From contig NC_087436.1 of assembly GCF_036321535.1 (NCBI RefSeq), positions 13,330,001 through 13,394,000 of the forward strand: a stretch of DNA of 64,000 nucleotides, read 5' to 3'. This DNA comes from Camelus dromedarius. Lineage: Eukaryota. The notes under the pieces were generated by a model that saw only the letters and a program-made list of their open reading frames with translations, was not told the origin of the DNA and did no database searches. Position 1 is the first letter of the stretch. Every line of letters starts with the position of its first letter. Below are positions 13,690 through 59,525 of the stretch, piece by piece. The position numbers and the translations under genes are program-made.

Positions 13690-13900
13690 GCGCTTGCTAT
13701 GGGCCAAGCACTATTTTAAGTGTTTTGCTAATATGAACTCGTTTAATCCTCGGAAGGATCTGAGGCAGGTTGTATTATTATCTTTCCACGACACTAACAG
13801 ATTAAGTGATTCACCAAAATCGTATGCTGTTAAGTGAAGGGGCTCAGCTTAGCCCAAGAGCACTCTGGATCCATTCCCCATGCTCCAAAGCTCTCTGCTA
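13690..13900 (-). mobile_element. MIR SINE
   Basis: 'cttgctatgggccaagcactattttaagtgtttt...aactcgtttaatcctc...aggttgtattattatc...gattaagtgattcaccaaaatc'. Confidence 0.65.
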
Positions 13901-14041
13901 CGCTTACGGTCATTTTAAAATGCTAAGTTTAGGGGTGGAGTACAGCTCAGTGGTAGTGCGTGCTTAGCATGCATGAGGTCCTGGGTTCACACCCCAGTAC
14001 TTCCATTAATTTTTTTTAAAACATTAAAATAAATAAACCTA

Positions 14042-14369
14042 CAATGCCGTGTTGGATGGAGCCAACTGCATCATACTGTCTGGAGAGACGGCCACAGGGG
14101 ACTGCCCCCTGGAGGCTGTTTGCATGCAGCACCTGTTTGCCCGTGAGGCAGAGGGCGCCATCTACCATTTGCAATTATTAGAGGAGCTAAGCCTCCTGGC
14201 ACCCGTTACCAGCCACCCCACGGAAGCCGCCACCGTGGGTGCTGTGGAGGCCTCCTTCAAGTGCTGCAGTCGGGCCATCATCGTCCTCACCACGTCTGGC
14301 AGGTCTGCTCACCAGGTGGCCAGATACCGCCCCCGCGTCCCCATCACTGCTGTGACCCAGAATCCCCAG
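14042..14369 (+). pseudogene. PKM: PKM (M2 isoform) processed pseudogene, 5' piece (~residues 350-458)
   Basis: Translates [31 protein letters not shown]...[70 protein letters not shown]. Intronless, contains the M2-specific exon, 5'-truncated. Confidence 0.96.
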
Positions 14370-14370
14370 G

Positions 14371-15593
14371 TTTTTGTTTTTTTTTTTTTTTTTTTTGCAA
14401 ATGAAATCACATTCGTCCAGATTTTATTCGCTCAAAACTACTAGGGAAGCAGTAGGATTTGGTTTAAACACAGCCAAAGAGCAGGAATTTACCTTAGTGT
14501 TAACTCGGAAGCAATCCTGTTGTGAATGTTGTAGCCGGGGTCCGGCAGCATGGGGGCCGGGGCCCCGCTGTGTTCGCTGAGGAATCCCGCGGCTCTCTCA
14601 GTTCAGGCTCCGGCTCGCTAGAGGTGGACCCACTGTTGATGGCGTAGACGCTCTCTGCTACTCCCTGAGCTGAAGCACAGCCATCTGGCTCCTTCTTCTC
14701 CCTGGGACTAGACAGTCCTGGGAGGACAGCCATCCTCCCAGTCTGCCTGGTGGGCAGCAAGGACACGGTGTAGTCTGCAATGATCCCACTCATGTCTAAG
14801 TTGCACGCCTGGTCGAAGGCTAGGAAACCAATGTTGGCATTTGCCTCACACACCACAAAGGAGCCATCGTCCATGTTGAGGAGATCGATGCCACAGAAGT
14901 CCGTGTCCGTGATGTTGGACACCTGGATAGCCAGCTGCTTGCCTTGTTCCGTCAGTGGGCACATGACGCTCAGGCCACCAAGAGAGCAGTTGCTCTGCGT
15001 CCATCTGTCTGTACTGCAGCAAAGCATGGAGCCTATCACCTGGCCCCCAACAGCCACCACCCGGATATCCTTTCCACAGGACTCCTTCAGGAACAGGTAG
15101 GACACGTCAAGGCAGGTCAGATGGCAGATGTCTGAGAGGTGGTGTTTATCTCTTGTGAGAAAAATAGCTTTTCCCTGATGTCGGCGCGTGCTCTTCACCA
15201 CCACCGGCTAGCCCAGCGGCTCGGCTTCATCGATCATTTTGGAAAAGTCTTCATGCCCACCGTAGGAGAAGGTGTCTGGCATGGGGACCCCATGTCCAGC
15301 CAGCTCCTGGGACATCCAGAATTTGTTGATGCAGTTTAAAATGCCCTGTGGGCAGTTGACTAAGCGGCAGCCCAACTTCTCCAGGTGTCTCAGGACTGTG
15401 ATGTCACTATCCGATTGCACTGAGGGTGTGGGCACCCCGGACAAGCACCACATCTAGGAAAGCGGTGAGCGCCTTCTGGCTCAGCTGCAGGCCGAGGTTG
15501 CCGCCGACCGTGGTGTTGGCGATCTGGTCCAGGAGCATCGCCCGGAAGCGCACGTCCTGCTCAGAGCAGCACTGCTTCGGGGGCGCAGGATCT
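14371..15593 (-). pseudogene. RIMKLA: RIMKLA (NAAG synthetase II, ATP-grasp) processed pseudogene, antisense inside the PKM retrocopy
   Basis: Minus-strand frames give CSEQDVRFRA...[31 protein letters not shown]...DEAEPLG, and VVKSTR...[19 protein letters not shown]...[25 protein letters not shown]. Intronless. Stop at 14489-14491, AATAAA at 14423-14428, poly(A) at 14371-14396. Disabled by TAG at 15208-15210, frameshifts and a 3-codon deletion; lacks the first ~20 codons. Confidence 0.95.
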
Positions 15594-16448
15594 TCCCTGT
15601 GGTGTATAAGGACCCAGCGCAGGAGGCCTGGGCAGAGGACATGGACCTCTGGGTGAACTTGGCCACGAACGTTGGCAAGGCCCGAGGCTTCATCAAAACG
15701 GGAGATGTAGTCATTGTGCTGATTGGGTGGCGCCCTGGGTCTGCCTTCACCAACACCAGCAGGTCCTTCCTGGGCCATGATGGGCCCGGAGCCCCTCCTC
15801 CAGCCCCTGTCCCACCCGCCTTCCCCAACCCATCCATTAGGCCAGCAGCACTTGTAGTGCTCACTTGGGGCTGTAACGTGGCACTGGTGAGCTGGGATGT
15901 CAGGAAGACAATGCCTCTGTGAAACATGGCTGTTTGGAAGACCCTGTTTCGGTGCAGTAGTTCAGAGCTGGGTCCCCCATCATGTGGCCCCGTCCAAGCA
16001 AGGGACGAAGGAGGGCTGCAGGCAGGACTGGAGGCCCCAGAGCTTCACACAGAGGATGACAATTTTCCTTCTTCTTTTCCTTTGTGTACTCGTCTCAGTT
16101 CCTGCAGAAAATGATACCCAGAGAACTCCCAGCCCTGGCCTGGGATCAGGAGAGAGCCAGCAGAGTTAGGGCAGGGGGCAGTGGTTCCAGTTTCTGCAGA
16201 CTCTGGCTCCAGCCCTGGCCCTTACTTGCTTCTCCAACCCCCTTGGCCTCCCTCACTCCCACCTTGATCATTGGGCACGTCTGTTCCCTTCACTCCACTC
16301 GGCTGTCGCTGCAAACACTTCATCCTCTCCCTTCCTTCTTCCCAACTACTGCAGCTGTCTCCAGGCCTGTTGCTGTAGAGTACAGCCTATCTGTATGTCG
16401 ATAAACCACAGCTGAAGAAATAAATAAATAATAAATAAATAAATAGAC
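15590..16448 (+). pseudogene. PKM: PKM processed pseudogene, 3' piece (~residue 469 to stop, full 3' UTR, A-rich tail)
   Basis: IFPVVYKDPAQEAWAEDMDLWVNLATNVGKARGFIKTGDVVIVLIGWRPGSAFTNT, then a 1-nt frameshift before the native TGA (15778-15780). PKM-like 3' UTR ends 'gtcgataaaccacagctgaag', followed by an (AAAT)n tail from 16418. TSD aaataaataaaccta (14027-14041) vs aaacaaacaaaccta (16449-16463). Confidence 0.95.
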
Positions 16449-16885
16449 AAACAAACAAACCTAATTACTTCCCCCACCAATTAATTAATTAATTAATTAA
16501 ATGCTAAGTTTACTTAGTACATATACAAATGATTTAATTTTTTACTTTTTTAAAAATCAGTTTTAAAACCAAAATCCTTTAACTTAACCGAAAATCACAG
16601 CCAGGCCTATGAGCACTGCTTCTCAAGGATTTGGAAGGAGAAGCATGTGTTCGTCCTGTATCTCTCAGCTATGATGACCCAAACCCAACTCAGACTTAAG
16701 CAAAAGAAAGACTTACTGGAGTTACAAAATGAGATACTGGGGGTAAAGTTGGCCTCAAGGACCCCAAGGGACTCAAGATATGTCATCGAAGCTCACTCTC
16801 TTGCTCTCTGTACTTCTTGGCTCTGACTTCCTCTGTCTATTGGCCATATTCTCTTTCTTTCTTTTATTGAATATAAGCTTTCTCC

Positions 16886-16951: not shown

Positions 16952-17519
16952 TTAAGGGGTGTGACCATGGGCGGCACTGGCTCACCTGACTCCAGGTCAG
17001 CACTCCCAGTACAAGCACCCAGTGTGCACAGATACACTCACTCAAAGGTCTCTGTTGGGCCTCATCCTGGGCCAGTCGTGTTACCAGAGGGATTCTTGAC
17101 TACAATGGCTGGAATCTCGGTTGCAAAATGGTTTCATTGTCACCCATTTTTTCACTTTTATTCATGCACGTCCGGGATTGTCTTGAAAACATTTTCCCCC
17201 TCAACAAGTTGCTAGAATCTAGTTGGCATCTGTTGGCTTGGTCTGCCCAAGATCCTGTGTCCCCCTCTTTCACTTGGGGAAGCCCTCCCATCCTGCTACA
17301 TGTGGCTTTGAGGGTGGGGAGCTGTGGTTCACAGCATTCTGCCTCCCTGCCCACTGGGATGGCCAGTCATAGTGGGAGTCAAGAGATTCTTAGGCTTTGC
17401 AGGCAGCGATCATGTTCAGAAAACAAGCAACTGGTATGGGATGGAAGACATCTACCTATACAGGCGGGCAGGAACTGAAATCATTGTTAACACAAAGCTG
17501 TGACTACAATTCATCCCCA

Positions 17520-30676: not shown

Positions 30677-30770
30677 GGGAGGGTATAGCTCAGAGAGAGA
30701 GCAAGTGCTTAGCACACACGAGGTTCTGGGTTCAAACCCCAGTGCCTCCATTAAAAAATAAAGAGAGAAG
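30677..30770 (+). mobile_element. Vic-1-like tRNA-derived SINE (short form)
   Basis: 'gggagggtatagctcag...gtgcttagcacacacgaggttctgggttcaaaccccagtgcctccattaaaaaataaa'; flanking direct repeat agaataagac at 30662-30671 and 30771-30780. Confidence 0.88.
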
Positions 30771-53196: not shown

Positions 53197-53685
53197 TGTA
53201 TCTGCTTGCTAGGGCTGCCATCACAAAGTACCACAGACTAGGAGGCTCAAACAACAGAAATTTATTTTCTCACAGTTCTGGAAGCTAGGATTCTACAATG
53301 TCAGTAAGGTTGGTTTCCTCTGAGGTTACTCTACTTGGTTTGAAGATGGCCATTTTCTTGTTGTGTCTTTTTTTTTTAAATTTTTTATTTAATGGAGGTA
53401 GTGGGGATTGAACCCAGGACCTCGAATGTGTTAAGCATGTGCTCTACCACTGAGCTATACCTTCCCCACTCCTTGTGTCTTCATTTTGTCTTTTCTTTGT
53501 GCATATCTGTATCTTAATCTCCTGGCTGTAAAAGGACCCCAATCATATTGGATTAGGGCACACCCTAATGACCTCATTTTAACTTAATTACCTCTTTAGT
53601 GACTTTATCTCCAGCCACATTCTGAGATCCTGGGGTTTAGAACTTCACAAATGAATTGGGGGAGTACACAACTCAGCCCATAACA
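53197..53685 (-). mobile_element. MaLR LTR (MLT1B/C-like) containing a SINE
   Basis: 'tgctagggctgccatcacaaagtaccacagactaggaggctcaaacaacagaaatttattttctcacagttctgg...actcagcccataaca'. Confidence 0.9.
53370..53467 (-). mobile_element. Vic-1-like tRNA-derived SINE
   Basis: Reverse complement 'ggggaaggtatagctcagtggtagagcacatgcttaacacattcgaggtcctgggttcaatcccc...' with A tail; direct repeat ttgtgtctt at 53361-53369 and 53473-53481. Confidence 0.9.
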
Positions 53686-59385: not shown

Positions 59386-59525
59386 GGGGAGGGTATAGCT
59401 CAGTGGCAGAGTGCATGCCTAGCATGCACGAGGTCCTGGGTTCACTCCCCGGTATCTCCATTTAAATAAATAAATAATTAAATAAATAAACCTAATTATT
59501 TCCCCCCAGCTAAAAGAAAAAAAAA
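59386..59525 (+). mobile_element. Vic-1-like tRNA-derived SINE, long-tail form
   Basis: 'ggggagggtatagctcagtggcagagtgcatgcctagcatgcacgaggtcctgggttcactcccc...aaataaacctaattatttccccccagc' plus A tail. Confidence 0.92.

Follow-up and report, generated by a model that had tools for sequence, protein, structure and literature searches.

How two unrelated cellular messenger RNAs (mRNAs) come to be copied into a single chromosomal spot, one inside the other, is the question raised by a locus of the dromedary genome. The locus lies in a stretch of 64,000 nucleotides (nt) of Camelus dromedarius DNA, hereafter the window (NCBI RefSeq assembly GCF_036321535.1, contig NC_087436.1, positions 13,330,001 to 13,394,000; window coordinates are used throughout), in which a retrocopy of PKM M2 sits inside a short interspersed element (SINE) of the tRNA-Ala type and is split in turn by an antisense retrocopy of RIMKLA. 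A first-pass annotation, made from the sequence without database searches, had described this nest and had concluded that it implies either a site open to germline insertion more than once or a single compound event. The analysis reported here covers the complete assembly (2.3 Gb, 171 contigs, the window being located on contig C1) and direct inspection of positions 13700-16800 and of a comparison SINE at 59386. Three separate germline retropositions, in the order SINE, PKM and RIMKLA, very probably explain every feature of the locus, and neither a hotspot nor a compound event is needed. The order, already proposed by the first-pass annotation, is borne out by topology, because every element lies within the one that it splits, and each insert brings its own A-tail and its own junctions. 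All three layers are now dead.

The outermost layer is a SINE bounded by a direct repeat (13918-13931 and 16499-16512) whose two copies are identical at 14/14 bases, as first noted, and which constitutes its target-site duplication (TSD). Its head (13936-14005) clears the Rfam gathering score for transfer RNA (tRNA), with 31.3 vs. 29 bits, and its 5′ part is 78.6% identical to the intact copy at 59386. ARAGORN found no tRNA in the split copy when run on 13800-16700, because the head is too decayed, while it called tRNA-Ala(AGC) in all six of the better-preserved family copies. The uninterrupted structure is given by the 59386 copy, which had been put forward as the pre-insertion model, and by 29 further genomic copies that agree with it. 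Together these 30 intact copies have a head of ~77 nt, an (AAAT)n linker, a conserved motif starting CCTAATTAC... and an A-rich tail. The family is abundant, with at least 3472 first-look candidates genome-wide, 40 of which were scored, and the window itself contains four copies. The split element thus has a tRNA-like head, an A-rich tail, a TSD and a high copy number, all the features by which tRNA-derived SINEs are recognized. Two side observations concern this family. The heads at 30677-30762 and 53368-53467 run straight into an A-rich tail without the CCTAATTAC... motif, and these two copies may represent a second subfamily. The linker of the split copy also contains a run of eight T (14010-14017) where other family copies are A-rich, an oddity local to this copy.

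The border between the SINE and the PKM retrocopy is marked by a second direct repeat (14027-14041 and 16449-16463) that matches at 13/15 bases, the same count as in the first-pass annotation. Taken alone, this identity is weak evidence, the pair being A-rich; the stronger evidence is therefore the duplicated piece of the conserved SINE tail motif. This motif is present once within the element in 30/30 intact copies. In the split SINE, the end of the linker and the first four bases of the motif occur twice, directly before the PKM sequence and directly after its A-rich tail, and the motif continues downstream of the second copy. Such a doubled motif at the PKM borders is the expected look of a TSD made inside a SINE.

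The PKM sequence consists of two pieces (14042-14369 and 15590-16417) that align, at 86-91% identity, with four consecutive exons of a single intron-bearing gene on contig C29 (local blastn). A genome search with the first piece, half A, returned five matches, namely itself, three exons on C29 (86-91%) and one match on C23 (70%); half B returned three, itself and two exons on C29. Introns are absent from 3/3 exon joins (14135|14136, 14302|14303 and 15674|15675), and the introns of both parental genes, PKM and RIMKLA, have GT/AG borders. Half A translates into 109 codons without a stop and matches pyruvate kinase PKM in the PDB (E 1.5e-52, residues 350-458 of 531), the top group of entries including some named "Isoform M2" or "M2 isozyme," and Pfam detects the PK and PK_C domains in the PKM pieces. 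The parental locus has two alternative exons of 55 codons; the retrocopy is 88.6% identical to the downstream one and only patchily similar to the upstream one. Since the downstream exon agrees with the PDB chains of PKM, M2-named entries included, the source of the retrocopy was the M2 splice form. The copy ends 12 nt past the AATAAA signal and continues as (AAAT)7, where the parent continues with non-A sequence. Its TSD lies at a TT/AAAA site, the left copy being preceded by CATT. The PKM insert therefore has the attributes of a processed pseudogene: a spliced parent elsewhere, an end at the poly(A) site with an untemplated A-rich tail, and a TSD. Its reading frame is broken by a 1-nt coding deletion at 15759, which causes a frameshift, and its untranslated region (UTR) has acquired 10 indels.

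The innermost layer, inverted relative to PKM (14397-15593, minus strand), corresponds to five successive exons of an intron-bearing gene on contig C14, at 85-94% identity. In the genome search, the minus strand of 14398-15589 gave nine matches: itself, five consecutive ones of exon size on C14 (86-94%), two on C25 (72%, a paralog) and a short one on C6. All four exon joins (15493|15492, 15261|15260, 15174|15173 and 14979|14978) are intron-less, and Pfam detects RimK. The spliced parental open reading frame (ORF) of C14 encodes 391 amino acids (aa) that are 97.4% identical end-to-end to a record named N-acetylaspartylglutamate synthase A; identity to records named beta-citrylglutamate synthase B is 66%. 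The copy has thus been rightly labelled RIMKLA. The copy ends 23 nt past AATAAA, at the parental poly(A) site, where the parent continues ACAGAAAC, and its own poly(A) reads as 25 T of 26 on the forward strand (14371-14396). Thus, both segments match parental genes of the same species exon by exon, with the parents located elsewhere, in agreement with the first-pass identification of two cellular mRNAs, the inner one reversed and with its own poly(A). The RIMKLA copy is disabled by a −3/+2 indel pair at 15583/15575 (net −1), single-nucleotide frameshifts at 15439 (+1) and 14569 (−1), a 9-nt deletion at 15089 and an in-frame TAG at 15210. It has the spliced parent and the poly(A) end of a processed pseudogene and lacks the TSD at a TT/AAAA site.

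Beyond parents and paralogs, the genome search revealed no other copy of either retrocopy, a fragment on C6 excepted (L006:1501-1821). This very short RIMKLA 3′-end fragment, ~89% identical to the window copy, is without a long poly(A), is missing the extreme 3′ end and has in turn been interrupted by a SINE of the family described above, in reverse orientation and with a flanking repeat of ~17 bp.

Since both parents reside in the same genome, the junctions of the innermost insertion can be read against its presumptive target. The two PKM halves are collinear, as the first-pass annotation had stated, and the A-rich tail it listed is present, but the halves do not abut: 30 nt of the parental exon (L012:1586-1615, codons 459-468) are gone, or 26-30 nt when a 4-nt ambiguity is allowed for. 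In the parental exon, ...CCCCAG is followed by these 30 nt and then by ATCTTCCC..., and the RIMKLA insert replaces the 30 nt. No target sequence is duplicated at the borders of the insert. At the 3′ junction of the insert, base 14370 is a G where parental PKM has an A, so that the sequence before the tail reads CCCCAG+G and 0/4 bases preceding the poly(T) are T, whether counted as CCAG or CAGG. Nor does a T-run with an A after it occur anywhere in the 30 parental bases that were lost. At the 5′ junction, the window sequence ...CGCAGGATCT agrees exactly with the RIMKLA parent and at 8/10 positions with the PKM parent. Its last four bases, ATCT, are common to both parents, and the RIMKLA copy therefore starts at nt 62-66 of the coding sequence (CDS). 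The lack of a TSD, the non-T priming site, the 4-bp microhomology and the missing PKM sequence make the third insertion non-canonical, the first two being classical. This insertion without TSD, which removed ~30 nt of its target, escaped the first-pass annotation. The features of the locus are collected in Table 1.

Table 1. Layers and junctions of the nested locus, in window coordinates
Feature	Positions	Strand	Evidence or remark
Outer TSD, left copy, 14 bp	13918..13931		Identical to 16499-16512; follows TTTT, at a TTTT/AAAA-type L1 endonuclease site
SINE 5′ part: tRNA-like head to ~14009, T/A-rich linker, first 4 nt (CCTA) of tail motif	13932..14041	+	Rfam tRNA; identity to 59386 copy
Inner TSD, left copy	14027..14041		13/15 vs. 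16449-16463; follows CATT, at a TT/AAAA site
PKM retrocopy half A: residues 350-458 of 531-residue chain, M2-type exon	14042..14369	+	blastn, PDB, Pfam
Single G between PKM and poly(T)	14370..14370		Parent has A; substituted PKM base or untemplated base
RIMKLA poly(A), T5 G T20 on + strand	14371..14396	-	No A-run encoded downstream of parental poly(A) site
RIMKLA retrocopy: CDS nt 66-1176 and 92-nt 3′UTR	14397..15589	-	Parental exon alignment
ATCT microhomology, common to RIMKLA 5′ end and resuming PKM	15590..15593		8/10 when extended
PKM retrocopy half B: residues 469-531, stop codon 15778-15780, 3′UTR to parental poly(A) site	15594..16417	+	Parental alignment
PKM A-rich tail, decayed to (AAAT)7	16418..16448	+	Absent downstream of parental poly(A) site
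Inner TSD, right copy	16449..16463		13/15 vs. left copy
SINE 3′ part: remaining tail motif (ATTACTTCCCCC...) and (AATT)n tail	16464..16498	+	SINE family comparison
Outer TSD, right copy	16499..16512		Identical to 13918-13931

Evidence from outside the window's own assembly bears on whether the nest is real. When the longest open reading stretch of the inverted piece was searched against proteins, two records proved to be much nearer to the pseudogene than to true RIMKLA proteins, which are 79-81% identical to the same query. One (P0001, 324 aa) is labelled Camelus ferus and the other (P0014, 154 aa) C. dromedarius, with models at 14503-15778 on the minus strand. P0014 matches the window at 153/154 residues. 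Residues 1-114 of P0001 map unbroken to 15778-15437 with 110/114 identical, and its first ~60 residues are antisense PKM. Because P0001 crosses the 15590 junction, an assembly under another species label contains this junction as well, and the nest is therefore real and old. Both records are named N-acetylaspartylglutamate synthase A or a spelling variant thereof (N-acetylaspartyl-glutamate, synthetase), and are likely annotation artefacts built on a dead retrocopy. In addition, among 24 listed sequencing runs of one organism, 14 contain a share of 0.93-0.97 of the sampled 31-mers; ten of these 14, from five studies other than the flagged possible source, contain 93-96% of the sampled words. 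Six further runs labelled or guessed as RNA (X15-X20) contain 6-31% of the sampled words of 13850-16600, shares that could stem from parental PKM and RIMKLA transcripts or from DNA carry-over, and no inference about expression is drawn from them.

The sequence of events that best fits these observations can be laid out as follows. A tRNA-Ala-derived SINE of the abundant camel family would have inserted at a TTTT/AAAA site, producing the 14-bp TSD. A PKM M2 mRNA would then have served, from its poly(A) onward, as the template for classical L1-type target-primed reverse transcription, presumably by L1 ORF2p, from a nick at a TT/AAAA site in the (AAAT)n linker of the SINE, which would have left a copy 5′-truncated at codon 350 and flanked by a TSD of 15-16 bp that includes the first four bases of the SINE tail motif. 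Finally, a RIMKLA mRNA with a short 3′UTR would have entered the PKM retrocopy as an inverted copy. Synthesis on its poly(A) would have been primed by a DNA 3′ end not rich in T (...CCCCAG), and the cDNA end would have been joined via the ATCT microhomology at CDS nt 62-66, with the loss of ~30 nt of target and without a TSD. This last step would have been atypical, either through endonuclease-independent priming at a pre-existing break or through an unusual L1 nick whose resolution removed a little of the target.

Neither of the two implications drawn by the first-pass annotation finds support in this comparison. TT/AAAA sites are the preferred kind of L1 endonuclease target, and a hotspot was rejected as an explanation, the PKM copy having entered at an ordinary endonuclease-preferred A-rich site and the RIMKLA copy at a place without an endonuclease-type site. 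Mammalian genomes contain roughly 10^4 retrocopies of ~1 kb; from these figures, a rough estimate gives a few to a few dozen cases of a retrocopy inside a retrocopy by chance per mammalian genome, on the order of twenty at 2.3 Gb, so that chance nesting is expected. A compound event is a highly improbable alternative. In such an event, the reverse transcriptase would leave the PKM mRNA at residue 469, switch through the microhomology to a free first-strand cDNA of RIMKLA, follow this to where its poly(T) ends and return to the same PKM mRNA 30 nt further on, which would yield an inverted RIMKLA piece with its own poly(A) in one retroposition episode at the SINE linker. It would account for statistically indistinguishable divergences of the two retrocopies, for an insert without its own TSD or endonuclease-type site, for microhomology at the switch point and for a skipped PKM stretch of only 30 nt. 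Yet it requires two template switches, one onto DNA and one back to nearly the same position; we know of no precedent for such a double switch, and an excursion onto a DNA template is, to our knowledge, undescribed for L1. The weak trends discussed below also all make PKM the older copy, and the inner piece is inverted, ends in a 26-nt poly(A) of its own and has PKM to either side. Template-switch chimeras typically have one orientation, a single poly(A) and one TSD pair. Those mentioned in PMC1920257 (L1-U6, and L1 with a piece of mRNA at its 5′ end) switch between RNA templates. A chimera of the U6-L1 type was thus rejected as a candidate, RIMKLA being antisense to PKM, with its own poly(A) and PKM on both sides. 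Twin-priming inversion, as modelled in PMC2912911, was rejected as well: the inverted piece derives from another gene and sits in the middle, and PKM stands in sense orientation next to the 5′ TSD.

A more trivial explanation would be that the PKM and RIMKLA pieces were misjoined during assembly. The 14370 junction does border a 26-nt homopolymer, which is a difficult context, but an artefact is extremely improbable given that the gene model from the differently labelled assembly crosses 15590 and that the ten runs of the five other studies contain nearly all sampled words. Moreover, the pieces are 8-9% off their parents, hence not misplaced parental reads, and the joins fall exactly at the poly(A) end of an mRNA and at a microhomology, as biology predicts. 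In the RIMKLA step, poly(A)-primed synthesis at a non-canonical DNA end goes together with a truncated 5′ end, its joining through microhomology and the loss of 26-30 nt of target. The mechanism we prefer is endonuclease-independent priming at a break already present in the DNA, with about an even chance of being the right one. If the insertions were sequential, a classical endonuclease-dependent insertion at an atypical nick, the deletion arising from resolution of the 5′ end, is a tenable though somewhat doubtful alternative. The complete 3′ end and the 26-nt poly(A) of the RIMKLA copy are as in target-primed reverse transcription. Target-site deletions and microhomology-mediated repair are reported to go with 5′-truncated insertions (PMC2912911), and the L1 endonuclease is stated to cut "atypical" motifs too, less efficiently (PMC1920257). 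Against a nick of this kind stand the four bases before the poly(T), which include no T, and the 30 deleted bases, which offer no T-run followed by A.

The divergence of the retrocopies had been proposed as a test of insertion order. Each retrocopy was compared with its spliced parent and differences were evaluated with Fisher tests. The comparison runs in the expected direction but is uninformative, with 104/1140 differences for PKM (9.1%) vs. 90/1190 for RIMKLA (7.6%) over all sites (p = 0.18) and 76/1050 (7.2%) vs. 61/1065 (5.7%) over non-CpG sites (p = 0.19). At codon positions 1+2 outside CpG, at which the parents hardly evolve, the values are 18/295 (6.1%) and 41/655 (6.3%; p = 1.0). Divergence was therefore dropped as a decisive clock, and the order rests on topology. 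Other comparisons point the same way: CpG decay reaches 31% in PKM vs. 23% in RIMKLA, indels number 11 vs. 5, and the A-tail of PKM is decayed where that of RIMKLA is nearly pure. The head of the split SINE is off the family consensus at 10/73 positions, against an average of 5.7% in the 30 comparators, which were picked as best matches to one copy and are thus biased toward well-preserved copies. These trends run SINE > PKM > RIMKLA in age, and none is significant. Differences are spread evenly over codon positions (8.5/7.1/7.9% in RIMKLA), which indicates neutral evolution; both retrocopies are neutral and broken. Under commonly used mammalian substitution rates, a non-CpG divergence of ~6% suggests an age of tens of millions of years, in which case intermediate alleles will probably not be found in living camelids.

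Several points weigh against the sequential account or against parts of it. The divergences fix no order, the two mRNA insertions being of similar age, and near-simultaneity is possible. No allele or species in an intermediate state was seen. The 14370 junction is covered by sampled k-mers only, and a protein search with PKM half A (17 matches at E <= 1e-20, the best at 82%) disclosed no gene model across it. The 30 deleted target bases are known from the parent, not from the PKM retrocopy as it was when hit. As for the endonuclease-independent component, the RIMKLA insert departs from two of the four criteria given by Sen et al. (2007, PMC1920257), having an intact 3′ end and a poly(A).

The surroundings of the nest add little. 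Eight flanking ORFs within ~5 kb gave no Pfam match above threshold. An open frame of 162 codons on the plus strand (16990-17478) has a sub-threshold match to Noggin (E 0.0024, 18.2 vs. 24.1 bits), which is probably due to chance.

The locus is an ordinary stack of retroposed junk DNA, and neither a function nor a new kind of element is suggested by it. Its interest is that the presence of both parents in the same genome makes the pre-insertion target of the innermost event known base by base, and that it provides a clear teaching example of nested retroposition, with an mRNA insertion that is TSD-less, deletion-forming and microhomology-joined and that keeps its full poly(A). For annotation, it is of value to know that a dead RIMKLA copy is filed as N-acetylaspartylglutamate synthase A under both Camelus ferus and C. 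dromedarius labels. The presence or absence of each of the three layers could also serve to mark deep branches among camelids or tylopods. The practical value is otherwise small.

Each layer of the nest can be compared with a known system. The rodent ID element is a tRNA-Ala-derived SINE, and the host family of the window, called tRNA-Ala(AGC) by ARAGORN, resembles a camel element of similar build. In SINEBase, vic-1 is described as a simple tRNA-derived SINE of camels, structurally similar to rodent ID (PMC3531059), and the family of the window shares with it the short tRNA-derived head, the A-rich tail and the abundance in the camel genome. The likeness is one of description only, and most copies of the window family also have, after the (AAAT)n linker, a conserved 16-nt motif that may or may not belong to vic-1. 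Both mRNA copies resemble L1-mediated processed pseudogenes in being intron-less, 5′-truncated, provided with an untemplated A-tail at the parental poly(A) site and subject to neutral decay. The PKM copy extends this likeness with a 15-bp TSD at a TT/AAAA site, whereas the RIMKLA copy departs from it through the lack of a TSD or endonuclease-type site and the removal of ~30 nt of target.

In Sen et al. (2007, PMC1920257), endonuclease-independent L1 insertions are characterized by the absence of TSD, by non-TTTT/A sites, by 3′ truncation and by the lack of a tail, and a target deletion accompanies 18/21 such loci. The RIMKLA insert shares with this class, as there described, the absence of TSD, the non-TTTT/A site, the target deletion and the junction microhomology, and differs from it by its complete 3′ end and 26-nt tail and by being the copy of an mRNA rather than of L1. 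Of the four criteria listed there, it displays two, TSD absence and site divergence, and neither 3′ truncation nor tail absence, and it is therefore not filed in the endonuclease-independent class. Its features fall between classical target-primed insertion and the published class.

A phrase search of a limited collection returned no paper with a retrocopy inside a retrocopy in its title or abstract, and the nest is not to be seen as surprising on that account. Nested retroposon insertions are reportedly used for relative dating under the name TinT ("transposition in transposition"), applied to repeat families within repeat families. Two of the three layers of the nest differ from these in being single-copy cellular mRNAs, but the inner element is likewise younger than the one it interrupts, and the same logic orders the SINE, the PKM copy and the RIMKLA copy.

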